NCBI GenBank assembly: GCA_964545065.1
Contig: CAZJEO010000003.1
Coordinates: 1 to 55,701, forward strand
From: Candidatus Woesearchaeota archaeon
Lineage (GTDB): Archaea; Nanobdellota; Nanobdellia; Pacearchaeales; GW2011-AR1
Length of the DNA: 55,701 bases
Direction: 5' to 3'
Numbering within the stretch: the first letter of the stretch is position 1; each line of letters begins with the position of its first letter. The position numbers were made by a program, and so were the translations under genes. Under the pieces are notes generated by a model. The model searched no databases and was not told the origin of the DNA. It worked only from the letters and a program-made list of their open reading frames with translations. Positions 2,838 through 53,838 of the stretch are shown here, in pieces.

Positions 2838-3393
2838 AAAAGGGTTGTCTGGAGTAGTTACTGCGATGATTATGATTGGTTTGGTTCTGGTTGCAGCTGG
2901 GATTATCTGGGGGGTTGTGAGCAGGATATTGCAAAGTTCTGAAGGAGCAGAGTCGTGTATTGAAACCATCAATAAGGTTACAATTAATGGTATCTATACT
3001 TGTTATGATGAGGGACTTGAACAAGTTCATTTTTCCCTGAGTATTGAGGATATTGATGTTGATGAAGTGGCTGTTTCTATTTCTTCTGCTGGAAATGTTC
3101 AATCTTATACATTAACCAATACTGATGAAACTATTGATGATTTGTTTCCTTACAAGACTAAGGCCAGTTATTGTCCTGCTACAGCTTGTACAGGAAATGA
3201 TGTTTGTATAAATGGAAATTGTATTCCTCCACAAGCAGTTAAACTTCCAGGGAAAAGAGGAGGCCAAACTTATGTGGCTAATGGTTTTATCTCTGAACCT
3301 GATTTAATTAGGATTGCCCCTACAATTAGTGGAAAGTCATGCGATGTTTCTGATTCTCTTTCTCACATCGAATTTTGTTCTTTATCGGCTTAA
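2815..3393 (+). CDS. Pilin-like protein with class III signal
   Basis: Internal ATG 2815 gives MERKLKYKKG/LSGVVTAMIMIGLVLVAAGIIW. The track start 2767 would overlap the previous gene by 70 nt. Confidence 0.6.
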   Translation: MERKLKYKKGLSGVVTAMIMIGLVLVAAGIIWGVVSRILQSSEGAESCIETINKVTINGIYTCYDEGLEQVHFSLSIEDIDVDEVAVSISSAGNVQSYTLTNTDETIDDLFPYKTKASYCPATACTGNDVCINGNCIPPQAVKLPGKRGGQTYVANGFISEPDLIRIAPTISGKSCDVSDSLSHIEFCSLSA

Positions 3394-3954: not shown

Positions 3955-5501
3955 TGGAACAAGCAATACTTACTTACCAAAGAGTTGCGATTGATTTTTC
4001 GCCGAAAGTACCTCCCTTGAAAAAGATAAAAGACAAAACAAAGGTTGATGTTAGATATTGTCTTATTTCTCCATTCGCATTTGTGCATATCCATTGGGAC
4101 CCAGAGATCTATGAAATTATTTATGAAATTGAAGAGCCGATTCTTACTGAAGAAGAGATGAAATACAAGGACCAGATATCAGAGGCAATGAGAGATATGA
4201 TAAATTTCTACAAGGTTGTTGGAAGAGAAACAGATTCTCTTCTTGAATATATTGACAAGCGGTTGAAAATTCTTGCTATTGAATTTGGAATTAATTTATC
4301 TTATGAAACATACAAGAAAATATATTATCATCTTTGCCGGGACTTTATTGGGTTTAATGAAATTGAGCCTGTACTAAGAGATTATTTTATAGAGGATATT
4401 GAGTGCAATGGAGTTGATAGTCCGATTTATGTTGTTCATCGAGTATATCGAAATATGAAGACAAACCTTATTTTCAAAAAAGAAGAAAAATTGGAGAGTT
4501 TTGTTGAGAAGCTCGCGCAGAGGTGTGGGAAATATATATCTTATGCTAGCCCGATTCTTGATGGGAGTCTTCCTGATGGTTCGAGGGTGAATGCAACTTA
4601 TACAAGAGATATTACTAGCAAGGGTCCTACATTCACAATCAGGAAGTTTACAAAAAAGCCGTGGACACCGATTCAGTTGATTTCGTTTAAGACCCTGAGT
4701 ATAGAAATGCTGGCTTATCTCTGGTTGGTGGTTCAGTATAAGATGAATATACTTATTACAGGTGGAACAGCTTCGGGAAAAACAACTCTGTTGAATGCCC
4801 TTGCTTTTTTCATCCCTCCTGAAGCTCGTGTAGTAAGTATAGAAGACACGCGTGAATTGAATCTTCCGAGAGAGAACTGGCTTCCAAGTGTGGCTAGGAC
4901 TTCTGCTGCACTTACTGAGAAAAATGATATAACTTTGTTTACTTTGCTGAGAAGTTCATTCAGGCAAAATCCAGATTATGTAATTGTTGGTGAGGTTAGG
5001 GGAAAAGAAGCATCTGTATTGTTTCAGGGAATGGCATCAGGACATTCTTCTATGAGCACTATGCACTCAGATTCAGTAGATACCTTGATAAAAAGATTGG
5101 AGACGCCTCCTATTGAACTTTCCCCCACACTTGTTAATGTTCTCGACTGCGTTTGTATTATGACACATGCGCTTGTGAACAAAAAAGAAACAAGAAAACT
5201 TAGGGAGATAGTTGAGATTGTAAATGTTAATCTTAACGGGATTGCAACTACGAATACGCCTTTTATGTGGAATCCTGCAGAAGATAGTTTTTATTTTAAG
5301 AGGAAAAAAACTGTGATAGAAAAAATTTCAAAGCGGCATGGATTAAGCATGGAAGAATTGGAAATTGAATTTAGAAAAAGAGTTAAACTTATTTACATGC
5401 TGCATCAAAAAAATGTTTCCAAATTTGAAGAGGTTCAGGAAATTGTCAATAGATATTATAAAAAACCTGAATCTGTGTTAAGGGAATTCGGAGTACAGTA
5501 A
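3951..5501 (+). CDS. Type II/IV secretion-family ATPase (archaeal PilB/FlaI-like pilus assembly ATPase)
   Basis: Walker A is GGTASGKTTLLNAL and Walker B / Asp box is DYVIVGEVRGKEA. SMSTMHSDS is a His-box-like segment. Length is 516 aa and the gene is flanked by pilin and platform genes. Confidence 0.9.
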   Translation: MMEQAILTYQRVAIDFSPKVPPLKKIKDKTKVDVRYCLISPFAFVHIHWDPEIYEIIYEIEEPILTEEEMKYKDQISEAMRDMINFYKVVGRETDSLLEYIDKRLKILAIEFGINLSYETYKKIYYHLCRDFIGFNEIEPVLRDYFIEDIECNGVDSPIYVVHRVYRNMKTNLIFKKEEKLESFVEKLAQRCGKYISYASPILDGSLPDGSRVNATYTRDITSKGPTFTIRKFTKKPWTPIQLISFKTLSIEMLAYLWLVVQYKMNILITGGTASGKTTLLNALAFFIPPEARVVSIEDTRELNLPRENWLPSVARTSAALTEKNDITLFTLLRSSFRQNPDYVIVGEVRGKEASVLFQGMASGHSSMSTMHSDSVDTLIKRLETPPIELSPTLVNVLDCVCIMTHALVNKKETRKLREIVEIVNVNLNGIATTNTPFMWNPAEDSFYFKRKKTVIEKISKRHGLSMEELEIEFRKRVKLIYMLHQKNVSKFEEVQEIVNRYYKKPESVLREFGVQ

Positions 5502-8763: not shown

Positions 8764-11700
8764 ATGAAAAGATGCTTGGTAATTATTTGTGTTTTCTTTA
8801 TTTTGATTCTTTCACTTTCGTTTATCTCGGCTGGGTTTTTTTCAGATATTTGGAATAAAATAACAGGGAAGGTTGTAGAGGACTGTGATGACAGCGACGG
8901 GCATTTAGGTTTAGAAGGGAGTTATTATGTGAAGGGAACTGCTTGTGCGGCTAATGGTTGTTTTACAGATTCTTGTGTTGAGGAGGGAGGTTCTGTGTTG
9001 AGGGAATTTTCTTGTAGTCTGGATGAAAGAGTAGTTTATTTGAGATATACTTGTCCTGGGGGAAGTACTTGTTCTGAAGGAGTTTGTGGGGATGTTTGTG
9101 TTGCTGAAACTTGTGCTTCATTGGGGTATGAATGTGGAACTCATGATGATGGATGTGGAGGAAGTTTAGATTGCGATGTTTGTCCTAGTGGAGAAATATG
9201 CTCAAATGGAAAATGTATTGAAGAAGGACAAGGATGTGTGATTTTTTATCTTGATGCTGATGGGGATAGTTATGGTGTGACAGACAATCAGTGTTTAGAA
9301 TCTGCTGCAGGAGATTATACTGCTTCACAATCTGGAGATTGTGATGATTCTGATTTAGAAATTAATCCTTTGGCAGAAGAAGTTTGTGATGATAGTTTAG
9401 ATAATAATTGTGATGGAAATGTTGATGAGGGCTGTGTTGTTGAAGGAGAAGAAGTTCCTGGAGTTGGAGACGAGGAAGTTGTTGAAGGTGCTGAAGAGAT
9501 AACAGAGGGAGATATTGAAGAGGTGCTCGGGGAGACTGAAGGAAGTGGGGCATGTATTCCTGAAACAGAAATCTGTGATGATGAAATAGATAATGATTGT
9601 GATGAATTAGTGGATTATGATGATATGGAAGATTGTTCAAGATGTGAAAGAACAGATACAAGTTGTTATTATGATCTTGAAGGTGAAGCATGTGTTAGTT
9701 GTGCGTCGTTAGAACCTGTTGATTTGAATTGTAATTTTTTTAGGACAAAATTAAAGGCAAGAACTTTTGGATGTGGAGCCGGTAGTTGTGAAGAAAGTGT
9801 ATTACGATCTGTTATTGAGGATTGTGGGTTTGGATGTTCTGAAGATGAAGAAGGAGCTCATTGCATGACTCAAGAAGAATCTGAAGAGACGTCGCTATTT
9901 GTAGAGTTTATTGTAGATATTTTTGTTGCTAGTGAAGAAGCTGAAACAGTTGAAGAAGTTGAAGAAACAATTTCAGCATGTGTTCCTGAAACAGAAATTT
10001 GTGATGATGAAATAGATAATGATTGTGATGAGTTGGTTGATTATGATGATGTTGAAGAATGTGTTGTTGTGGAGGAAGTTGTTGAAGAAGAAATAGAATG
10101 TTTCCCTGAAGTGGAAACCTGTGAGGATGAAATAGATAATGATTGTGATGGAGAGATTGATGAAGTGGGTTGTAGCTCTGTTTATATAATTCAATTTTAT
10201 GATGCTCCTCTTGCAGAAAAAGAGTATGAATTAGAGAATCAGATAAAAGAATTAGAAGCGACTTTGTATATAGCAGAACAAGAACCTGAGGAATCGGGAG
10301 GTGTTTTCCAAACAAGGTCTCTTAATGAGATTTCTAAAGAATTAGAATCTATTAATTTAGAAGAAGAAATGCAAGAACATGAAGAGGTTTTAGAAGATAC
10401 AAGAAATTCTTTTAAAAATAAAATACTCTCAGATAAAAGTATTACTGGTTCTGCTGTTGAAGGAGAAGTAGAAGATATTATAGTGGCAGAGTATAAGTAT
10501 GCTCTTAATGGTATGGCAATTAGATTGACTCCTGAAATGGCTGCTGAAGTTGAGGGGTATAAGGGAGTTAAGAGTGTTAGTAAGAGTATGAAAATGGAAT
10601 TTGCCTTAGATAATTCAGTTCCCTTAATGCAAGCAAATATTGTTTGGATTTATAATAATCAAGATAGACTTTGTAGAGATGAAAAAAATTGTTTAACAGG
10701 TAAAGGTATTAAGGTAGCTATTATAGACTCCGGTATAGACTATACTCATCCTGCTTTTGGTTCTTGCACAAAAGAAGAAATAGATGGTGGTAATTGTGAA
10801 AAAATAGGTTTAGTAAAAACATACGCTTCATCATTTGATGCTCTTGACTTAATTGGTCATGGAACACATGTAGCAGGAATAATAGCTGCTAAAACAGATT
10901 TAGATAGAGATGGTTCTTATTGTGAAGTTGATGAAGGAGAAATCTGTGGAATTGCTCCAGATTCTGAACTTTATATATATCAGCTTTCTGATTCTGATTC
11001 ATTTGGGGAATATGTTGTAGCTTCTGCTATTGATGATGCTGTTAGCCAGGGTGTTGATATAATATCTATAAGTGTGACTTTTTACCCTTCTGTTATGCCA
11101 ATGTTAGATAATCCTGCAAATAAACCTTTATGTGTTTCAGTAGCAAATGCGTTCAATGCTGGTATCTTTGTTGTCGCAGCTGCAGGAAATAGGGGTCCAA
11201 ATAAAAATACTGTTGGGTTTCCTGCAGGCTGTATTAAAACATTTGCGGTAGGTAATTTTGATAATATTCTTGGATTACGTTATGGTGGTGAAAAATTAAT
11301 ACATTGGTCAAGTTCAAGAGGACCTATTAGTTATATAGATCCCAAGAATAATTATGTATTTACTTACCCTAAACCAGACATTGTGGCTCCTGGAAGAGAG
11401 ATATGTTCTGCTAATCCTTTATATATGGGAGAAGAATTTGGTGATAAGACTTGTGTTTCTGGTTTTGAAGATGAGATTAATCGCTATCGATGGGGTACTG
11501 GAACTAGTATGGCAACACCTCATGTTGCTGGAGTTGCTGCTCTTTTAAAACAGGCAAAACCAGATTTAACAGCGTATGAATTATGGGATATTTTAAAGGA
11601 TGGTGCACTTGGAGAAGATGTATTCCCGGGGTTCAAAACTATTTTTGATGAAAATGACCGTGGAGCAGGTTTCCTACATGCTTATGAAGCTTATAATAAA

Positions 11701-18217: not shown

Positions 18218-20068
18218 ATGAGGTCAAAAGGAGAATTATTATTTGTCTGTTTGTTATTACTTGTTGTTTTATCATTGAGTAATGTTTCTTCTTCTGCAGT
18301 TTGTTCAATTGAAGCTTCTGAAGCAGATTGTGATGCAATAACAAACGGGAGAGTTGTAATGAGGTTATCTAATTCTGACAATGCTCATGGAGAAATGAAA
18401 ACCCACACTCCAGCAGATTATGAACATGTTTTGTGTTGTAATTTTGGAAGTGGAAGTTCTAATTGTAATAATGGTGGTAAATTAATAGGGTTATCTTCTG
18501 AAACAAATGCTCATGCAGAAATTCCTGACCTTGTTACTCCTAATTATTTAAATGATGTTTGCTATGATGGATTTGGTAATTGTTCTTCAGTAGATGTTGG
18601 AACATCCTGCTCAATTGAGGAGATTGGGGTTTTGCAATTATTTTCGACTACTAATTCCCATATTGGACCCCTTAATCCAGAAGGATATCCTCAAAAGATT
18701 TGCTGTAAGATTGATGAGGATATAACAGATTGTACTCTTGATACTGCTTACTGGAGTTTGGATATTATTGACCCTTTGGCTAATGCGCTAACTGCTGGAG
18801 ATAATCCTATTGTGGAAGACACAGACGTTTACCTTGTTGTAGATGGAACTGATTGTGGTACTAATCCAATTACATTTGAAATTTTTGAAGATACCTTAGG
18901 AAGTAATGAAACTCGACAACCAAGTCCGCAAAGTTTATCATTTTCATCAGACAGGGCACTGACTACATGGTCAACTAAATGGGTTAATGTTTCTGGAGCA
19001 GACCCTAAATATTATTTTAATGGAACAACTTTATCAACGATAACAAGTGATGCTCCTTTATTAGAAGTCAAGCAATCAGAGTTTGATTGTGCTGTTGATG
19101 GTATTACAGAACGTTGTGCTGATTATACTATTTTTGGCGGGGAGCCCACTGGAGAATGTAAGGCAGATACGTGTAGATTTGCTGTGAGGGATGTTGAGGC
19201 TACATTTCCTGAAATAGAATGTGGAACTGCTTATGATTGTGCATGTGGCTGGGATGCCATAGGAACATGTGTGCCTCAAGCGACTTATAAGGGTATTTGT
19301 GGTGATGAAAGCTGTACACCAGGGAATGAAGATTGTTCTTCATGCCCAGAGGATTGTGGAACTTGTCCTCCTGTAGATTGTGGGAATGGGGATTGTGCAC
19401 CTAATGAAAATTGTAATACCTGTGAATTAGATTGTGGAACTTGTCCTATTCCTGAATGTGGTGATGGTCTATGTGCTGAGAATGAAGAATGTGGGAATAG
19501 TGATGTTGCCCCAGAATGTAATACTGATTGTGGTCCCTGTACTCCAACAGATGTTTGTCCTGATGGAAGCTGTACAGGAACTGAAACTTGTAGTACTTGC
19601 TCAAGTGATTGTGGGACATGCCCACCAATATCTTGTCCTGATGATTATTGTGCGCCTAATGAAGATTGTTTCCTTTGTGCCAACGATTGTGGAACTTGTC
19701 CAGATGTAGATTGTGGTGATGACCTTTCCTATTGTGCTCCTAATGAGGATTGTAATTCTTGCCAAGAAGATTGTGGAGTTTGTATTGGAGATTTAATGGG
19801 AAGGTGTTCTTTTACAGAATCAACAACAGATAACTGTGATGATAACTTCTTAGACTATACCTGGACTGGAGACTGGACAGGAGTTGTTCCTAATTCTGAA
19901 AATCCTAATTATCCTCTTTATGAAAAATGTGAAGCGGGGGGATCAGCACAAAGGCCATGTCCTTCCCAAATTCAACTTCCTTTCTTTGGTTTGTTTGGTG
20001 TACTTGTAACTTTAATAGTAATTGCATTAATTTATATTTCATTGATTTTTAAGGAAAAGAAAAAATAA
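18218..20068 (+). CDS. Cys-rich surface protein with tandem DCGTCP modules and C-terminal membrane anchor
   Basis: It has an N-terminal signal and three L-S-x3-N-[AS]-H modules. About 7 tandem modules of ~20 aa follow (C..NE.C..C..DCGTCP). The C-terminus LPFFGLFGVLVTLIVIALIYISLIFKEKKK is a motif + TM + basic tail. Confidence 0.6.
   Translation: MRSKGELLFVCLLLLVVLSLSNVSSSAVCSIEASEADCDAITNGRVVMRLSNSDNAHGEMKTHTPADYEHVLCCNFGSGSSNCNNGGKLIGLSSETNAHAEIPDLVTPNYLNDVCYDGFGNCSSVDVGTSCSIEEIGVLQLFSTTNSHIGPLNPEGYPQKICCKIDEDITDCTLDTAYWSLDIIDPLANALTAGDNPIVEDTDVYLVVDGTDCGTNPITFEIFEDTLGSNETRQPSPQSLSFSSDRALTTWSTKWVNVSGADPKYYFNGTTLSTITSDAPLLEVKQSEFDCAVDGITERCADYTIFGGEPTGECKADTCRFAVRDVEATFPEIECGTAYDCACGWDAIGTCVPQATYKGICGDESCTPGNEDCSSCPEDCGTCPPVDCGNGDCAPNENCNTCELDCGTCPIPECGDGLCAENEECGNSDVAPECNTDCGPCTPTDVCPDGSCTGTETCSTCSSDCGTCPPISCPDDYCAPNEDCFLCANDCGTCPDVDCGDDLSYCAPNEDCNSCQEDCGVCIGDLMGRCSFTESTTDNCDDNFLDYTWTGDWTGVVPNSENPNYPLYEKCEAGGSAQRPCPSQIQLPFFGLFGVLVTLIVIALIYISLIFKEKKK
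19290..19790 (+). repeat. Tandem coding repeats (~60-66 nt units) encoding C-x-NE-x-C-x2-C-x2-DCG[TV]CP modules
   Basis: Repeated gattgtggaacttgtcc strings occur at ~19356, 19431 and 19687, with the variants gattgtgggacatgccc at ~19609 and gattgtggagtttgta at ~19771. Confidence 0.8.
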
Positions 20069-24806: not shown

Positions 24807-26186
24807 ATGGCACAAACAATTGCTTCTGTGTTAAAAGAGGTATTGAAAGAAGTTAGTCCTTTGCCAGAAGATGTTGATTTGATTGAATCATCTTTAAAAG
24901 ATTTTTTAGTGAAGTTTGAAAAAAGTTTGAAAAGATTGAAAATAAATGCAGAGATTTTTGTTGGCGGAAGTTATGCGAAAAAAACCATGATTCGGAAAGA
25001 TAATTATGATATTGATATTTTTGTGCGGTTTGTTAAAGATCAGAACATTTCTAAGCTTTTAGAAAAAGCATTAAGAGGATTTAGTGCGAAGCTTATTCAT
25101 GGGTCTCGGGATTATTTTCAGGTGACTGTGACTAAAGATATTTTCTTTGAGATAATTCCTGTTGTTAAAGTTAAGAATCCAAAGGAAGCAAAGAACATTA
25201 CTGATTTATCTTATTCTCATGTTAAGTATATGAATAGGAAAATTAAGACAAAAGAGATTTTAGATGAGATAAAATTGGCTAAAGTTTTTTGTTATGCTAA
25301 TGATTGTTATGGTGCAGAGTCTTACATACATGGTTTTTCGGGGTATGCTTTGGAATTATTGGTTTATCATTACGGAAGTTTTTTGAAGTTTATTAGAGAG
25401 ATGGCCAAATCGAGTGGGCACCCATGGGTGTACCCCGAGACTGTTTCTGGAGAAACGTCTACTAGGGGCAAGATTGTAGTGGATACTGAAAAACAATATA
25501 GAAATAAAACGCAAATTATGCTGGATATTAATACTTCAAAGTTAAAGTCGCCTATTGTGCTTGTTGATCCGACTTACAAGCAAAGGAATGTTGCTGCTGC
25601 CTTGTCTGAGGAAACGTTTGAAAAGTTCCAGAAAGTTTGTAAATCTTTTTTGAAGAATCCTTCTATGAAGTTTTTCGAACTTCAAGAAATTGATTTTGAA
25701 AAGATTAAAAAAATGTGCACCTCTCGGTGTATACCCAAGGAGGGCACAAGAACCTCTCACGAGGCCCCAAATTGTGGAATAAAGGGGCAATTTGAATTTA
25801 TTGAATTAGAAATTAAAACAAATCGTCAAGCAGGAGATATTGCTGGGAGCAAGTTGTTGAAATTCAATAAACATTTAGGAGGAGAAATTGAAAGGTTTTT
25901 TGTTATTAAAAATCAAGGATTTGAATATAAAGATGGTAGCTTGGCAAAATCATTTTTTGTTTTGAAGAATCGTGGAGAGGTTTTGTATGATGGTCCTATG
26001 ATAAAAGATGAGAAAAATATGAAGAAGTTTAAAGAAGAACATTCTAAAACTTTTATAAAAAATAAGAGAATTTATGCTAAGAAAAAGATTGATTTTGATT
26101 CTAAAGAATTTATTGGAAAGTGGAAAGTTAAGAATAGCAAGAGAATGAAAGAGATGTATGTTGTTGGGTTGGGGATTCTGAAATAG
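24807..26186 (+). CDS. cca: Archaeal class I CCA-adding enzyme (tRNA nucleotidyltransferase)
   Basis: From ATG 24807 the product reads MAQTIASVLKEVLKEV... FVGGSYAKKTMIRKDNYDIDIFVRF (the GS...DxD nucleotidyltransferase motif). YGAESYIHGFSGYALELLVYHYGSFL and LVDPTYKQRNVAAALS parallel the Archaeoglobus enzyme as I recall it. The track start 24750 adds 19 implausible residues. Confidence 0.85.
   Translation: MAQTIASVLKEVLKEVSPLPEDVDLIESSLKDFLVKFEKSLKRLKINAEIFVGGSYAKKTMIRKDNYDIDIFVRFVKDQNISKLLEKALRGFSAKLIHGSRDYFQVTVTKDIFFEIIPVVKVKNPKEAKNITDLSYSHVKYMNRKIKTKEILDEIKLAKVFCYANDCYGAESYIHGFSGYALELLVYHYGSFLKFIREMAKSSGHPWVYPETVSGETSTRGKIVVDTEKQYRNKTQIMLDINTSKLKSPIVLVDPTYKQRNVAAALSEETFEKFQKVCKSFLKNPSMKFFELQEIDFEKIKKMCTSRCIPKEGTRTSHEAPNCGIKGQFEFIELEIKTNRQAGDIAGSKLLKFNKHLGGEIERFFVIKNQGFEYKDGSLAKSFFVLKNRGEVLYDGPMIKDEKNMKKFKEEHSKTFIKNKRIYAKKKIDFDSKEFIGKWKVKNSKRMKEMYVVGLGILK
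25418..25472 (+). repeat. GC-rich palindromic element, family 1, copy 1 (in-frame inside cca)
   Basis: gcacccatgggtgtaccccgagactgtttctggagaaacgtctactaggggcaag has ~48 identical positions in a 58-column hand alignment with 52013-52069. CACCCATGGGTG is a perfect palindrome, and a second hairpin is CCCCGAGAC.GTTTC/GAAACGTCT..GGGG. Confidence 0.8.
25715..25768 (+). repeat. GC-rich hairpin insert 2 inside cca
   Basis: GTGCaCCTCtcGGtGTA|TACCCaaGAGGGCAC is an imperfect palindrome centred on GTATAC. It is followed by CCTC-tcac-GAGG. It encodes CTSRCIPKEGTRTSHEAPNC where, from memory, the A. fulgidus enzyme has no equivalent segment. Confidence 0.65.
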
Positions 26187-26328
26187 AATTGGCTCGTTGC
26201 ACTCGCAATTAATTAAATTGATAATCAAAAAACGTGTTGATAAACTGAGGGTTAGCGTGTAAATTAATACCTCTTATCAGATTTCTAGCGGAGAGCCTTG
26301 AACTTGTTCTGGCCCGGAGCAGATAACC

Positions 26329-27108
26329 TCAATCGCCCATAGCCTTCTCAAATAAAGATGCGAAAGCTTCTGCGAAAAAACTTGAGTTAAGCCAAATTGC
26401 AATATCTTCGTTTCCAAGTTCTTTTTTTGATAAGTAAAATAAGATTTCTTTTCTGTCAATTATGAAAAACTTTGTATCAATTTCTATTCTTTTTATTTTG
26501 ATTGAGAATTTTTTTTCTATTTCCTTGATTAATATTTCATCTCCTGATAAGGCTATTTTTAGTTTTACATCTGATTTTTTCAAATGTTCAAAAGTTTGAT
26601 AGAAAAGCTTTGCTTTTGATTTTATTTCATCAGCGTTTGTGCAAATTATAACTTCCTTGTTTGCTTCTTTGATTATTTCTCTTAAGAAATTTGAAATAGT
26701 AGATTTTCCTTTTAAAGATGCAGATATGTCTTCTCTTTTAACAGGGTTTATTCCCCCTTTGTAAAGTTCTTCAAGTTTCATGAATTCATCTGTATCTTTA
26801 ATTTTTGCAAGAGTGTTGATTTTTTCTTGTGCGTCTTTTCTTACCTTGTTCTTTAATCTTTCAAGAATCATCTTGGGTTTAATTCCAATATATTTTATTG
26901 GCTTGCCAATTTTGATTATTGCAAATCCTTTTTTCTCTAAACTTTCAAGAACATCATATGCTCTGCTTCTTGGAACTTGTGAAAGGCTTGCAACTTCTCC
27001 TGCTGAAGCAACTCCTTTTGAAATCAAAGCTAACCAAACCTTTGTTTCATAGACATTCAAGTCAAAATAATCTTTGATTTTATTGATTGATTCTTGTTTA
27101 ATTATCAT
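26329..27108 (-). CDS. TrmB-family transcriptional regulator
   Basis: N-terminal wHTH is FDLNVYETKVWLALISKGVASAGEVASLSQVPRSRAYDVLESLEKKGF, typical of TrmB. Length is 259 aa. Confidence 0.8.
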   Translation of the reverse strand: MIIKQESINKIKDYFDLNVYETKVWLALISKGVASAGEVASLSQVPRSRAYDVLESLEKKGFAIIKIGKPIKYIGIKPKMILERLKNKVRKDAQEKINTLAKIKDTDEFMKLEELYKGGINPVKREDISASLKGKSTISNFLREIIKEANKEVIICTNADEIKSKAKLFYQTFEHLKKSDVKLKIALSGDEILIKEIEKKFSIKIKRIEIDTKFFIIDRKEILFYLSKKELGNEDIAIWLNSSFFAEAFASLFEKAMGD

Positions 27109-27171: not shown

Positions 27172-28104
27172 TTAGAAGATTAAATAACTAAGAATCATTC
27201 CCAATAAAATCCCTGCTGTTATGAAAGGCATTGCAGGATAGAATTTATTTTTATCTGAAAAAAAGGACAAGTAACCTAAACCAAGAAGTGCTCCTGAGAT
27301 TACAAATATTGCTGGGAAAAATCCTCCAATGAAGCTTTTCAATCCAAAAGGCATTATCACTGTAGTTGTCTTGAATACAACTCCTGCGGCTATCAAAGGG
27401 AATACGACATCGCCACCTCCAAGAATTGCAACATTGATTTTTATTTTTTTCTTTTCTTTTGATTTGGATTTTCTTAATTTTTTTATTTTCATTCTTACTT
27501 TTTTTGAAATATGCGGAATCATAAAGCCTCCAAAAGCTTTTACCTTATTGATTTGGAATTTTGCCATTTTTTGCATGATTCCTGAATGCCAAACTGCCCA
27601 TATATCATAAACAGAAATTAGTGCTAATAGAATGAGGATTGTCCAGAAACTTAAGATTGGAACAAAGATGGCTGCAATACCAGGGTAAACCAAAAGTTCT
27701 GTTGCATTATGAACTATGAAATTTCTTTTGAAGACTTTGAAAAATGCTAAGGGAAGTGCAATGGCTAGGGCAATCCATGCAGCATAAGTAATTTTAATTG
27801 GAAAAAATGACGTAATCGTAATTCCTAATGCTAGAGTAATCACCAAAAAAAACCATACCCTTAGAATAAATTCTGCTTTTATTTTCGTTAATAAAAAAAG
27901 AAGTGCTATTGCAATTACAAATGCAAAAAGTATTGCATAGAAAAAATTTCTGTAATCTGAAGCTTTTTCAACCTCGGGTGTTTCTAATCCAAACGGAAGT
28001 TCATTTTTTTCTCGAACATAATGGTCGATAACATAAAGTCCGATAAACTGTGTTAAAAGAAACATTATTAGAATAATTGCAGTAATTTTTATATTGTGTT
28101 TCAT
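27172..28104 (-). CDS. Presenilin/signal-peptide-peptidase-like GxGD intramembrane aspartyl protease
   Basis: It is polytopic. YD is at ISVYDIW (D167) and GxGD at AILGGGDVV (D232), separated by a K-rich loop. A PAL-like FYPAMPF lies near the C-terminus. The spacing resembles the archaeal presenilin homologue PSH. Confidence 0.7.
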   Translation of the reverse strand: MKHNIKITAIILIMFLLTQFIGLYVIDHYVREKNELPFGLETPEVEKASDYRNFFYAILFAFVIAIALLFLLTKIKAEFILRVWFFLVITLALGITITSFFPIKITYAAWIALAIALPLAFFKVFKRNFIVHNATELLVYPGIAAIFVPILSFWTILILLALISVYDIWAVWHSGIMQKMAKFQINKVKAFGGFMIPHISKKVRMKIKKLRKSKSKEKKKIKINVAILGGGDVVFPLIAAGVVFKTTTVIMPFGLKSFIGGFFPAIFVISGALLGLGYLSFFSDKNKFYPAMPFITAGILLGMILSYLIF

Positions 28105-28193
28105 TTGAAAACAACCTGGCGGTTTTTTTCGATTTTCCCTCTAATTGCGGAAAGGTGGCATCTTTTCATTGCCTCCGCCGGATACCACATAAA
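28105..28193 (-). repeat. Conserved 5'-leader block, copy 1 of 2 (upstream of presenilin-like gene)
   Basis: The core 28134-28190 is 51/57 identical (hand alignment, no gaps) to 43021-43077. It lies between the upstream gene stop and ATG 28104. On the minus strand the arms GUGGUAUC/GAUGCCAC can pair. Confidence 0.8.
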
Positions 28194-28282
28194 ATTTATT
28201 TTCACCATCTTTATTAAAAATAAGAAAAAGAAGTTTTTAAAGTTGTTTAGATTGATTATGAGAGAATTTAATATTTAGAAAA

Positions 28283-41797: not shown

Positions 41798-42424
41798 TTA
41801 AATTCTAATCTCCCAAATACACAATCTTTCCATGAATAAATTCTCACATCCGATTTCTTTTGCATGATATCCCAGTTTTTCAAAATCAATCTTTTCTGCT
41901 AAGGAACTTGTGATTAAAAAAATAATTCCGTTTTTTTCTAAATGTGATTTTGCTTGGTTGAGAAAACGGAGAATTATTTCGTTTCCTTTTTTTCCACCTG
42001 TTGTTGCTTGCTGGGAATCTTTTGGTTCTCTTGAGTCCTCAGGAAGATAAGGGGGGTTGAAGATTATGGTATCAAATTTTCCTGAAATTTTTTCGAAGAG
42101 ATTTGAGTGAACGCAATTGAATCCGCGAGGACACCCCTTGTTTTCCTCGCGCTCCTTCCTCGAATCACTGAAGGGCGATTTCCCAACTGCCTTCGCTGGA
42201 AATCGCATATTCTGACAATGTTTTACTGCTTCTGAATCTATGTCGCATGAAAAAATATTTTGTTTTTTTATTCCTAAACTAGAAGATGTTTGCAAATGTA
42301 TTCCAGAGCCTGCTCCAATTTCAAGGAATTTTAAATCTGGATTTTTCTCTAGAAGTTCTGGTATTTTTTCCTTGAGAATTCTGGACATTAAATATGAATC
42401 TTCTGCTGGTTGGTAGATGGGCAT
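41798..42424 (-). CDS. NPPY-motif methyltransferase (HemK/PrmC/Mtq2-like)
   Basis: The SAM motif is FLEIGAGSGI and the catalytic motif is IIFNPPYLP. Length is 208 aa. Confidence 0.75.
   Translation of the reverse strand: MPIYQPAEDSYLMSRILKEKIPELLEKNPDLKFLEIGAGSGIHLQTSSSLGIKKQNIFSCDIDSEAVKHCQNMRFPAKAVGKSPFSDSRKEREENKGCPRGFNCVHSNLFEKISGKFDTIIFNPPYLPEDSREPKDSQQATTGGKKGNEIILRFLNQAKSHLEKNGIIFLITSSLAEKIDFEKLGYHAKEIGCENLFMERLCIWEIRI
42124..42206. repeat. GC-rich double-hairpin insert inside the NPPY methyltransferase gene
   Basis: CGCGAGGA (42124-42131) and TCCTCGCG (42144-42151) form a perfect 8-bp stem. GCGATTTCC (42175-42183) and GGAAATCGC (42198-42206) form a perfect 9-bp stem. The segment encodes ...FPAKAVGKSPFSDSRKEREENKGCPRG... 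between the SAM motif and NPPY. Confidence 0.7.
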
Positions 42425-42425
42425 T

Positions 42426-42989
42426 TTAACTAAACAAATTATTAAAGAAACTGATTAATTCGTCTTTGAAAAGAAAGATTGTTACGAGAATTCCGACTAG
42501 AAGGAGAAGGAGAAATCCTAGAAGGATTATGATTGTTTTGCCGCTTTGCTTTGGTGGTTGGCCGTAACCTGAAACTCGCTGTGGAGCTTGGCCTGGTTGT
42601 TGAGGTTGAATAAGCTGTTGTTGGGCTTGTTGCTGGGGGACTTGGGAGAGAGGGACTTGTTGCTGCATTGCTTGTTGAGGTTGCACCTGTGCAGGTTGTT
42701 GAGGGGATAATTGTTGACCTGGTGCGAGCATTTGAGCACTCACCTGTGGCGGAGGTTGAGGTTGTTTAGATTTCTTTTGTTTTTTTCCTTTTTTCGCAGG
42801 TTCTTGAACTTGTTGTGGTTGAGTTTGCTGTGCTTGAGCCACAAAACCTGATTCATTAATAGACTTGGCAGCTTCTGAGATTTCTTCTTTTTTATAGCCT
42901 GCGTTATAAAGAGTCATCATTGCTTTTTTCAAAGATTCGCCTCTTGTAAGAGCGGATTTTAATGCTTCTAAGATTGCTTCATTTACCAT
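42426..42989 (-). CDS. Q/P-rich low-complexity protein with C-terminal TM anchor
   Basis: It has an N-terminal ~60-aa globular part and a ~90-aa Q/P-rich segment. The C-terminal TM is IIILLGFLLLLLVGILVTIFLF. Its stop lies 1 nt from the downstream methyltransferase start. Confidence 0.55.
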   Translation of the reverse strand: MVNEAILEALKSALTRGESLKKAMMTLYNAGYKKEEISEAAKSINESGFVAQAQQTQPQQVQEPAKKGKKQKKSKQPQPPPQVSAQMLAPGQQLSPQQPAQVQPQQAMQQQVPLSQVPQQQAQQQLIQPQQPGQAPQRVSGYGQPPKQSGKTIIILLGFLLLLLVGILVTIFLFKDELISFFNNLFS

Positions 42990-43080
42990 CGTAAGACACC
43001 TACGGTTTCTTGACGTTCAATTTCCCTCTCGTTGCGGATGTGTGGCATCTTTTCATTGCCTCCGACGGATACCACATAGA
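42990..43080 (-). repeat. Conserved 5'-leader block, copy 2 of 2
   Basis: The core 43021-43077 is 51/57 identical to 28134-28190. It lies immediately upstream of ATG 42989. Confidence 0.8.
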
Positions 43081-43177
43081 TTTCCTTTTTAATCATAATT
43101 AGAATAGGATTTGTGAATTTAAAAATTATGGGGTTAAGAATAATAATGTTTAAAAAGAATTTCGTCTTAATTCAAAA

Positions 43178-51957: not shown

Positions 51958-52932
51958 ATGGCAACTGAAAAAGTTGACGAAAAAATTACTGAAGAAGAAA
52001 CTGTGAAGTCTAGCACACCCAAGGGTGTACCCCGAGACATTTCAGAAGAAATGTCTACTAAGGGCAAAGACTTGGCTGAGAAAGAAGTTGAACTTGATGA
52101 AGAAGCTGGTGAAGAAAAAACAGGCGAAGATTTAGAAAAATCTGCTGAGGCAGAATCTACTGATCCAAAGGCAGAAAAGACTCTTGAGGAAAAGAAAAAA
52201 GAACTTTTGAAAAGAGCAAAGAAACTTGCTGGTACAATTGATGTTACTTCAACAGAAGAATTAAAGGAGAAAGTTAAAATTAAGAAAAGAGAGGATATGC
52301 TGATTCCTCTTGAAGAATATGTTAAGGCGGGAATTTATCTTGGAACAAGAGTTGTTACACCTGACATGAGACCTTTTGTTTATAGAAGAAGGGCAGATGG
52401 TTTGGCTATTTTTAATACTGATTTAATTGATGAGAAATTGAAAGAAGCAATTAAATATTTGACGGAGTTTGCGCCAGAAGATATAATTATTGTTTGTAAA
52501 AGACAAGCTGGTTGGGAAGCTGTTGAAAGATTTGGGAAGATTACAGGAATCAGAGTTTTTACTAAAAAATATCCTGCAGGAATTTTGACTAATACTGCTT
52601 TACCAGATTTTTTTGAAAATGAACTTACTGTTATAAGTGATGCTTGGCTTGACAAAAATGCATTGAAAGATACTTTGAATGTTAAGAAAAAAGTTTTAAT
52701 GATTTGTGATACGAATAATTTTTCAAAGGGTACAGACCAGATAATTATTGGAAATAATAAATCACCGAAGAGCTTGGGTGTGATATATTATTTGTTAGCG
52801 AAGGGTTATTGTAAAGCTAAAGGTATTGAAGCAGATATTCCTGACTTGGAAATTTGGACAGGAGAAATTGCAGAAGAAAAAATAAGAGAGAAGATTTCTT
52901 TAAGTGCGAAGAACGCAGAGTATGGTGTTTAA
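51958..52932 (+). CDS. rps2: Ribosomal protein uS2 with ~113-aa acidic N-terminal extension
   Basis: The canonical S2 core starts near MLIPLEEYVKAGIYLGTRV (ATG 52297). The upstream 113 codons are open, K/E-rich and begin 32 nt after eno. Confidence 0.85.
   Translation: MATEKVDEKITEEETVKSSTPKGVPRDISEEMSTKGKDLAEKEVELDEEAGEEKTGEDLEKSAEAESTDPKAEKTLEEKKKELLKRAKKLAGTIDVTSTEELKEKVKIKKREDMLIPLEEYVKAGIYLGTRVVTPDMRPFVYRRRADGLAIFNTDLIDEKLKEAIKYLTEFAPEDIIIVCKRQAGWEAVERFGKITGIRVFTKKYPAGILTNTALPDFFENELTVISDAWLDKNALKDTLNVKKKVLMICDTNNFSKGTDQIIIGNNKSPKSLGVIYYLLAKGYCKAKGIEADIPDLEIWTGEIAEEKIREKISLSAKNAEYGV
52013..52069 (+). repeat. GC-rich palindromic element, family 1, copy 2 (in-frame inside rps2 extension)
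   Basis: gcacacccaagggtgtaccccgagacatttcagaagaaatgtctactaagggcaaag contains the hairpins CACCC-aa-GGGTG and GAGACATTTC-agaa-GAAATGTCT. Confidence 0.8.
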
Positions 52933-53652: not shown

Positions 53653-53838
53653 ACGACTATCTCATCTGTAATTTATTATTTTTGAGAAGTCAGTTGTAGT
53701 TCTAATAAAACCGTTTCGTTAAATCGAAACAACAGCCAATAGTTAGGAGTTCGTGTGAAGTGTATTATTTTCTTATAAATAATATGCGCAATCGAAATTC
53801 GTGTCGTTTATCGACGAGGAATTCATGACATTGTTTAA

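Follow-up and report, generated by a model that had tools for sequence, protein, structure and literature searches.

The window analysed here is a 55,701-nt stretch (contig CAZJEO010000003.1) that forms part of a 97-kb ENA metagenome scaffold and has a 16S rRNA gene and a tRNA-Ala gene at its end. Its overall GC content is 34%. The encoded proteins were closest to those of "Candidatus Pacearchaeota" and Nanoarchaeota metagenome-assembled genomes (MAGs), which placed the source among Pacearchaeota-like DPANN archaea. Our subject is a short GC-rich element of two hairpins that lies inside two unrelated genes of the window, those of the CCA-adding enzyme (cca) and of ribosomal protein uS2 (rps2), and that belongs to a dispersed family whose copies in genes are almost always open in the reading frame of the host. 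The genes and copies in the window are as follows.

24807–26186 (+): cca, class I (archaeal) CCA-adding enzyme, a 478-aa open reading frame (ORF) with two inserts
25418–25472 (+): short-form copy 1, inside cca; covariance model score 66.7 bits; orthologous copies in loci L121 and L034
25418–25431 (+): predicted hairpin 1 of copy 1, GCACC paired with GGTGT, loop CATG
25433–25468 (+): hairpin 2 of copy 1, lower stem CCCC/GGGG, asymmetric internal loop of G opposite ACTA
within 25433–25468 (+): predicted upper stem of this hairpin, AGAC(T)GTTTC paired with GAAACGTCT, loop TGGA
25717–25790 (+): second cca insert, a long-form member; a GC island missing in most Cca homologues, with the in-frame reading CTSRCIPKEGTRTSHEAPNCGIKGQ
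51958–52932 (+): rps2, for ribosomal protein uS2, whose N-terminal extension is rich in Glu and Lys and lineage-specific
52015–52068 (+): short-form copy 2, in the uS2 extension; covariance model score 79.8 bits, core at 52016–52067
52015–52028 (+): predicted hairpin 1 of copy 2, ACACC paired with GGTGT, loop CAAG
52031–52064 (+): predicted hairpin 2 of copy 2, lower stem CCC/GGG, upper stem AGACATTTC paired with GAAATGTCT, loop AGAA, z = -4.25

The likeness of the cca and uS2 segments had been noticed by eye in the original prediction, and it withstood formal alignment. Global alignment of 25418–25472 with 52013–52069 gave 48 identities in 58 columns and a score of 35; 5000 random window segments scored -12.8 ± 4.1 with a maximum of 7, so that the observed value lay ~11 standard deviations higher. 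The identical 15-mer GGTGTACCCCGAGAC occurred exactly twice in the window (25427–25441 and 52024–52038), for which the chance expectation was 0.16 even with three mismatches. The proposed contrast between a GC-rich element and AT-rich surroundings was also real (49–56% versus 34% GC). The core of copy 1, CACCC...GGGGCAA, spans 25419–25471 (53 nt) and reads GHPWVYPETVSGETSTRGK in frame, and copy 2 is exactly 54 nt, or 18 codons, reading TPKGVPRDISEEMSTKGK.

Both copies share the two-hairpin fold that had been drawn for them, and GTTTC/GAAAC in cca versus ATTTC/GAAAT in rps2 is a genuine compensatory change. Some details of the first description had to be corrected. Hairpin 1 had been given as CACCC-nn-GGGTG, a form whose 2-nt loop cannot close, and it actually consists of 4–5 bp around a CAWG tetraloop. 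A single frame had been assumed for both copies; this is true only past a 1-nt indel in hairpin 2, and the 5' halves are read differently (GHPWVYPET in cca, TPKGVPRD in uS2), which indicated that nucleic acid, not peptide, is common to the two. The K-S-S codons upstream of both copies were coincidental, for KSG, KAG or EIA stands there in orthologous copies from relatives.

The second cca insert had a longer layout, with the hairpin 1 variant CACC-TCTC-GGTG, an extra module ACCCAAGGAGGGCACAAGAACCTCTCACGAGG and a degenerate hairpin 2 (CCCC...GGGGCAA). A nhmmer profile made from long forms of other loci only matched window positions 25717–25789 with E = 8.1e-7, and the insert was therefore taken as the third family member in the window. 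Its short-form orthologue was present in a distant MAG (L035). The covariance model (R1) recovered just the two short-form copies over the window and none in the 10 kb of scaffold upstream of it.

In the AlphaFold model of Cca, residues 223–238 and 327–346, which cover both inserts, were coil with pLDDT <50, and confident secondary-structure elements lay on either side. When 26 Cca homologues were aligned, most had 11–14 residues at the site following FLKFIRxMxK, and several lineages had GC-rich inserts of variable length there. The Archaeoglobus fulgidus enzyme aligned around the segment (query residues 199–248 opposite chain residues 192–212) and does not have it, as the original prediction had stated. 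The uS2 copy falls within the variable first 40 codons; the distal part of the N-terminal extension is conserved and is therefore coding.

To collect further copies, the JGI metagenome collection was scanned with the two-anchor pattern CACCCADGGGTGTAC-N28-58-RGGGCAA, which gave 87 loci. About 11 of these were chance matches in GC-rich contigs, and ~75 were genuine, so that the expectation of more copies was amply borne out. Host proteins of at least 34 mutually unrelated families were represented. The genuine copies were all in Pacearchaeota-like contigs of 24–38% GC, each with different flanks. Beyond the search anchors they shared CCCCGA before and TACWA after a variable stem of 9–10 bp, giving the consensus R-CACCCAAGGGTGTAC-CCCCGA-(9–10 bp variable stem)-TACWARGGGCAA-R. 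The core measured 52–55 nt, and the commonest form, flanking purines included, was exactly 54 nt (18 codons). In the long forms (~85 nt), a ~31-nt module ACCAAGGAGGTGCRAGWASCTCTTCGAGG was inserted between GTGTAC and CCCC. Extra copies on the same contigs were located with the covariance model R1 and the nhmmer profile, and up to five were found in one surface-protein ORF (L202). Among the cca loci of 80 GTDB Pacearchaeota genomes (1.25 Mb), only L036 had a clear copy, which restricted the family to certain lineages. The specific two-anchor pattern had no match in viral contigs, where the bare 15-mer had 32 matches, all in unrelated GC-rich phage coding sequence; the element is thus not evidently virus-borne. 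Concatenated element peptides shared words with 669 candidates among 5.8 billion proteins, a figure that is no census, as an 18-aa match cannot reach significance.

Covariation across the copies agreed with the fold. In a 59-copy alignment, eight of the nine upper-stem pairs had changed on both sides, and 96.6% of cells were paired. None of 500 shuffles reached the observed values, and pairing dropped to 32–57% when the partner was slid by 1–3 columns. The sequence of hairpin 1 was fixed by the search pattern, and its covariation was judged on copies found by other routes. In such variants CACCC/GGGTG was replaced by CGCAC/GTGCG (L199), CACTG/CAGTG (L035) or, in the second cca insert of the window, CACC-TCTC-GGTG. 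Pairing rather than sequence was kept, and the relevant form is therefore single-stranded, either single-stranded DNA (ssDNA) or RNA.

The 47 host ORFs from the scan fell into 34 unrelated clusters. Many hosts act in translation or on tRNA, including leucyl-tRNA synthetase and other class I aminoacyl-tRNA synthetases, Trm5/TYW2, RtcB, deoxyhypusine synthase, diphthamide synthase, L24 and S11. Others were ScpB, radical-SAM enzymes, T2SS-F, Orn/Arg decarboxylase, LigD_N, glycosyltransferases and large surface proteins. Locations were counted on 87 non-redundant hits. A majority (57 of the 87) lay in sense orientation in long ORFs that stayed open in one and the same frame to either side of the copy, many within ~40 codons of an ORF end. 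Six were in sense orientation 5–10 nt upstream of the mature 16S 5' end, and the rest, apart from one antisense copy, were in short spacers, at contig ends or ambiguous. Five spacers between co-directional genes each held a copy in the sense of the flanking genes. The antisense copy (L203, 1794–1848) lies within an intact gene for the alpha subunit of phenylalanyl-tRNA synthetase (PheRS), in frame and directly after the HPVRDMQDTFFL motif, and encodes APRKNFEKIFRGTPLGV. A second hit scored as antisense was discarded, being the 16S-leader copy of L140 over a spurious 303-nt ORF. The orientation bias stayed extreme when counted as one event per host cluster. Locus L115 had two copies 1.1 kb apart on opposite strands, each sense to its own gene, which indicated that orientation tracks the host gene and not replication. 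The copy of L130 lay upstream of a likely TATA box and is probably not co-transcribed with the downstream gene.

Three sense frames were in use, beginning PKGVPR, TQGCTPK and HPRVYPE, and the conserved unit is therefore the nucleic acid and not the peptide. Whatever the entry frame, the 3' end was almost always read GGC-AAR (Gly-Lys). The element is predicted to yield tryptic peptides such as GVPRDISEEMSTK. Only two to four copies broke the frame, and these were confined to RadC-like genes. One such gene (L199, minus strand, ~2860–3000) had two copies with +2 and +1 shifts and a stop codon in a loop; it is probably a pseudogene, having lost the JAB domain. The other (L201, ~1240–1420) had one copy and a different ~80-nt insert flanked by CCCC; its catalytic domain was intact, and an internal start could supply it. 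We read these frame-breaks as decay under relaxed constraint, in genes that look decayed or dispensable at the N-terminus. They were not accepted as evidence of splicing, the L199 gene having no catalytic domain.

The six 16S-leader copies (L135, L140, L166, L170, L182, and L204) sit between the processing-stem region and the 16S rRNA. The 16S leader of the window itself did not carry the element, and an unrelated small hairpin, TTCGTGTCG...CGACGAGGAA, was found there at 53780–53838.

The sites were polymorphic among close relatives. The cca site was filled in the window, L034, and L121 and empty in L118. The closest insert-free Cca relatives (P0005–P0007) had 71–74% identity, and one of these, L118, came from the same sample as the insert-bearing L034. 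The uS2 site was filled in the window and L115/L116 and empty in L119/L120; among the uS2 proteins, P0122 had the element, P0124 and P0126 a longer variant, P0127 a truncated one, and P0123 and P0125 none. In a single TARA sample, the cca locus L121 carried the element and the uS2 locus L120 did not, and L115 had an extra copy in LigD_N that the window did not have. Most Cca and uS2 orthologues, close relatives included, did not have the segment, and this settled the question of insertion versus ancestral loop in favour of insertion, as originally proposed.

Copies also changed in place. A derived bulged T and the HPRVYPE frame, shared by the cca copies in L121, L034 and the window, mark these copies as orthologous. 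That of L034 (10609–10738) had grown, with a 21-nt unit CCAAGTAGGTCTGAAAGAAGA, consisting of GTAG plus a hairpin, present twice and a GGAGGTGCGAGTACCTCTCC hairpin module between both units. This indicated modular nesting and duplication within a resident element. In the opposite direction, L040 kept only the termini of the L036 copy after a 42-nt internal deletion.

Other short GC hairpins were seen in the uS2 N-terminus of L119/L120 (~4161–4289) and in several further uS2 sequences of the P01xx series, for example GAATCGCAGAGCGATTC and CTCCGGAC...GTCGGAG. These are possibly further small element families. The uS2 N-termini of many relatives also had a recurring peptide, AE(S/P)Q(V/E).A(D/S)L.K.

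Marks of a known insertion mechanism were sought. The flank repeats of 66 copies were indistinguishable from shuffled pairings, and hence no target-site duplication (TSD) was detected. No target motif was found; of the 66 copies, 64 had a purine at position -1, and A was frequent at +1 to +3, both of which were attributed to the element or to background composition. Terminal inverted repeats (TIRs) were missing as well, because the ends, R-CACCCAAGG... and ...RGGGCAA-R, are not mutual inverted copies and the inverted repeats are the internal hairpins. In Rfam, only the small-subunit rRNA and one tRNA of the window passed gathering thresholds, and permissive scans gave nothing with E below 0.68. 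Complementarity to the 16S rRNA, internal transcribed spacer or tRNA of the window was limited to chance 8-mers. A test for the strand of folding (G.U versus A.C mismatches, 4 versus 12) was not significant and was confounded by loop-proximal positions. Several structural candidates were rejected. Hand inspection of the consensus and predicted folds showed no opposite 3-nt bulges of a bulge-helix-bulge (BHB) intron, where a 4-bp helix parts the two at the exon-intron junctions; the only conserved internal loop was 1 x 4–5 nt, and the 5' end of the element (hairpin 1) was unpaired with its 3' end or flanks. A K-turn was discarded as no tandem G.A pairs lay beside a 3-nt bulge, and a hammerhead as conserved ribozyme cores were missing.

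We consider it probable, with the reserve set out below, that these copies represent a family of non-autonomous, hairpin-dependent dispersed elements that behave like the Rickettsia palindromic elements (RPEs) and are translated as a tolerated loop. The unit would be defined by the conserved box R-CACCCAAGGGTGTAC of hairpin 1; a CCCC/GGGG clamp whose asymmetric internal loop is fixed, with G facing ACWA; an upper stem of 9–10 bp that is free in sequence as long as pairing is kept; and a GGGCAA-R tail. Copies would land widely and would survive only where they are harmless, in leaders, spacers or genes. Within genes, survival would need a net insertion that is a multiple of three, free of stops and encoding ~18 hydrophilic residues in a surface loop or terminus, and such a copy would simply be translated. 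Small hairpin modules may nest into resident copies to produce the long forms, and partial deletion may occur too. Such elements would be, or would once have been, mobile in Pacearchaeota, and they may have spread by a hairpin-recognising, TSD-free mechanism, either of the IS200/IS605 or REP-RAYT type or one not yet known. The original prediction had left undecided whether the segment is translated or removed at the RNA level. The evidence leans strongly to translation, the copies in intact genes being almost always in frame and stop-free.

Several findings weigh against an RPE-like selfish element. A stop-codon filter alone predicts 54% sense orientation, and 57 of 58 copies were sense (P ~2e-14); for the 52-nt cores, frame usage was 28:1:0 in favour of the PKGVPR frame. 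A selfish element acting on DNA alone could show so extreme a bias only under strong selection at the peptide level. The orthologous cca copies had 91–95% nucleotide identity versus 74–83% for the rest of the gene, and 79–90% versus 60–70% at third codon positions. The six 16S-leader copies had identical boxes and paired but different stems in leaders that had otherwise diverged, which hints at function or concerted evolution over neutral junk. Such conservation, in cca and in the leaders alike, could stem from function, from gene conversion between copies or from correction templated by the hairpin. Compensatory changes in a palindrome can, moreover, arise free of selection through hairpin-templated correction. 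No autonomous partner was seen, as separated ends of hairpins 1 and 2 bracketing a longer segment did not occur in 1.7 Mb of fetched loci, which held only long or degenerate forms. No transposase, RAYT and TnpA included, and no reverse transcriptase turned up, though no proper search for these was possible. The copy density in this genome was also low (3 in ~66 kb).

The extreme sense and frame bias and the conserved pre-rRNA copy would suit an RNA-level reading, with the family as either a mobile RNA module inserting into transcripts, and hence fixed only on the sense strand of mRNAs, untranslated regions and the pre-16S leader, or a domesticated cis-acting signal of mRNAs and pre-rRNA. Taken together, these two readings are possible, if unlikely, and if one of them were true, selection would maintain a further, structural RNA code within coding sequences. 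As a host-functional cis-acting motif, the two hairpins would be a recognition site for an RNA-binding or processing factor, embedded in mRNAs, coding sequence included, and in the pre-16S rRNA leader, and retained for their usefulness in, for example, stability, processing, localisation or co-regulation. The near-exclusive sense orientation, extending to the five co-directional intergenic or untranslated-region copies and the six 16S-leader copies, the conserved boxes around a covarying stem as in protein-binding RNA motifs, the excess conservation of orthologous copies at third codon positions and elsewhere, and the many tRNA and translation enzymes among the hosts are all in line with such a role. 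However, translation genes dominate reduced DPANN genomes anyway, and surface proteins, glycosyltransferases, T2SS-F, ScpB, and LigD_N are hosts too. Presence that varies between close relatives, and from gene to gene in a single genome, is unusual for a regulon signal, the intact antisense PheRS copy and the L130 copy upstream of a likely TATA box do not fit, and there was no Rfam match; we therefore regard this role as rather unlikely. An RNA-mediated mobile element, which would insert into transcripts by reverse splicing or ligation and return to the genome by reverse transcription and recombination, seems less probable again. Such a route has a precedent in the transposition proposed for short archaeal tRNA introns in Thermoproteales, and the highly expressed 16S-leader copy could act as a master copy. 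It would account for the sense bias across ORFs, spacers resembling untranslated regions and the rRNA leader, and for the lack of TSD and TIR. Yet no BHB motif could be drawn at the element boundaries, the search, limited as it was, turned up no reverse transcriptase, the antisense PheRS copy and the L130 copy upstream of a promoter-like TATA box again stand apart, and the sense and frame bias is also explicable by peptide-level selection.

Removal before or during translation, by intron-like excision or ribosomal bypassing, would make the in-frame appearance incidental, and we judge it very improbable. The frame-breaking copies of L199 and L201, with intact-looking coding pieces on their flanks, and the GC-rich, structured nature of the element, which archaeal introns share, could be cited for it. 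But excision predicts that about one-third of copies are stop-free multiples of three, and what was observed was 57 frame-preserving copies versus 2–4 frame-breaking ones in one gene family, of which the L199 gene without the JAB domain is probably a pseudogene. Stop codons were avoided in the used frame, and no BHB motif was present. Bypassing was likewise rejected, for no pair of take-off and landing codons and no stop after take-off were found, features which T4 gene 60 and the byp elements have, and in the frame-broken RadC case an AGG landing gives the wrong frame. At the protein level, the copies might instead be a useful short linear motif (xPKGVPR...ST[KR]GK) with nucleotide similarity as a by-product of recent spread. 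One frame is strongly preferred (28 of 29 52-nt cores), the 3' end is nearly always GGC-AAR, and the hydrophilic peptide lies in disordered positions. However, the same nucleotide element gives unrelated peptides in three frames, the window cca copy included, the peptide from the covarying stem is not conserved, and copies in non-coding DNA and rRNA leaders keep the same boxes. Contradicted by the frame data, this proposal is largely refuted and hardly credible. The probability of chance similarity, or of an ancestral loop by descent, is close to nil, having been refuted by the alignment statistics, the absence from most orthologues and the dozens of copies in unrelated genes.

The RPE-like element that we favour can be set against several known systems. 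In yeast mitochondria, mobile GC clusters and byp elements are GC-rich hairpin mini-elements that invade AT-rich genomes, coding sequence included; their setting is organellar and eukaryotic. Ribosomes skip the byp elements, which have take-off and landing codons as well as stop codons, whereas the elements described here are open and frame-preserving. Archaeal BHB introns in protein genes, such as cbf5 in Crenarchaeota, are short, structured, GC-rich and in sense orientation, and their transposition has been proposed. In contrast, our element had no BHB at its boundaries, and its frame-constrained length and avoidance of stops in the 57 in-gene copies argue against splicing.

RPEs are repeats of ~100–150 bp, many copies of which lie in frame in Rickettsia genes (Ogata et al., 2000, 2002; summary in PMC10969869). 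Like them, the present element is a dispersed palindromic, hairpin-forming repeat with many copies in a small AT-rich genome. Both insert in frame into unrelated housekeeping genes at positions where a peptide is compatible with the fold (here 34 host clusters, and Cca loops with pLDDT <50), both also have copies in non-coding DNA, and a transposase is known for neither. The RPE analogy first drawn for this DPANN-type archaeon was thus upheld, in-frame insertion into loops and termini of unrelated proteins being the hallmark behaviour of RPEs. On the other hand, the host is archaeal (Pacearchaeota/DPANN) and not Rickettsia, the element is shorter (~54 nt, ~85 nt in long forms), and it has two hairpins with a freely covarying stem, three frames, modular long forms and a conserved 16S-leader copy. 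By size and host it is not a member of the RPE families, and the analogy extends to RPE behaviour only; no kinship in sequence would be expected.

Repetitive extragenic palindromic elements (REPs) are short (20–40 nt) GC-rich hairpins recognised as ssDNA by RAYT/IS200-IS605 Y1 transposases; they cause no TSD, and some lie in ORFs and are translated, intragenic cases being reported for bacteria only (PMC3733652). REPs have a GT(A/G)G tetranucleotide directly 5' of an imperfect palindrome. The antisense strand of our element reads GTA(G/A) at the stem foot, which is reminiscent of the GTAG tag of REPs, but GTAG itself was present in only about half of the copies (GTAG in 27 of 59 and GTAA in 29 of 59, alignment columns 48–51). 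REPs are mainly extragenic, bacterial and often inverted dimers, whereas these copies are mostly intragenic and single, with an orientation that tracks the host gene. MITEs (miniature inverted-repeat transposable elements), known from Sulfolobus, Haloquadratum and others, are small, non-autonomous, multicopy and polymorphic in presence (PMC10969869). Unlike MITEs, the element has neither TIR nor TSD, is much shorter and is overwhelmingly intragenic and in frame. Judged by the features that define RPEs, MITEs and REPs, it falls outside all three families. A review of prokaryotic MITEs from 2024 describes in-frame RPEs as unusually frequent and Rickettsia-specific and lists no DPANN MITEs (PMC10969869). 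No description of such elements was found in Rfam or in the literature searched on DPANN and other archaea, which agrees with the impression of novelty in the original prediction.

Further repeats were observed in the same DNA. A second family of ~90 nt has the core ATG.G..TCC..GA.GGCA...GCC.C.T.C....GATTAGAGG.AAAATCGAAAAAAACC...AGGTTGTTTTCAAATG and was present in the window at 28099–28214, 42984–43100, and 42117–42210, all on the minus strand. It was recovered by nhmmer in many Pacearchaeota loci (E 1e-30 to 1e-3), among them L118 (7922–8038), L081 (2765–2868), L035, L060, L115, L140, L083, L036, and L059, and had no Rfam match. Two window copies were immediately upstream of gene starts (SPP at 28104 and a gene at 42989), and the one upstream of SPP (28101–28208) contained a small upstream ORF whose stop overlapped the downstream ATG. 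A diverged copy within the HemK/MTS-like methyltransferase ORF at 41798–42424 was in another frame and had an 8-bp GC hairpin. Tandem Cys-rich modules (C..DNDCDG.. and CGTCP repeats) at 9380–10190, 19320–19810, and 1810–1975 belonged to large proteins that are secreted or at the surface; they are protein repeats of an ordinary kind and have no relation to the hairpin element. A GC-rich stretch of ~70 nt (26275–26355, minus strand) lay at and beyond the 3' end of a TrmB-like gene (26329–27108, minus strand), and nothing similar was found among the fetched loci.

The hairpin element has practical consequences for work on these archaea. Inserts in universal markers (uS2, L24, S11, aminoacyl-tRNA synthetases, and Cca) are gained or lost among close relatives, and such indels are therefore unsafe as phylogenetic signatures of DPANN; a 2026 preprint uses insertions in universal proteins in this way. 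Gene callers and alignments can be misled by the inserts as well. With neither TSD nor TIR, a reliance on hairpin pairing and a bias to the sense strand, the family points to a mechanism of mobility or maintenance not yet known in archaea, and the >70 natural variants of the family offer material for testing it. Protein-coding palindromic repeats, previously presented as a peculiarity of Rickettsia, now also occur in DPANN archaea with tiny AT-rich genomes, where the 18-codon size, the covarying stem and the orientation and frame bias are distinctive. The same behaviour in two reduced lineages indicates that such repeats are a recurrent outcome of genome reduction or relaxed selection.

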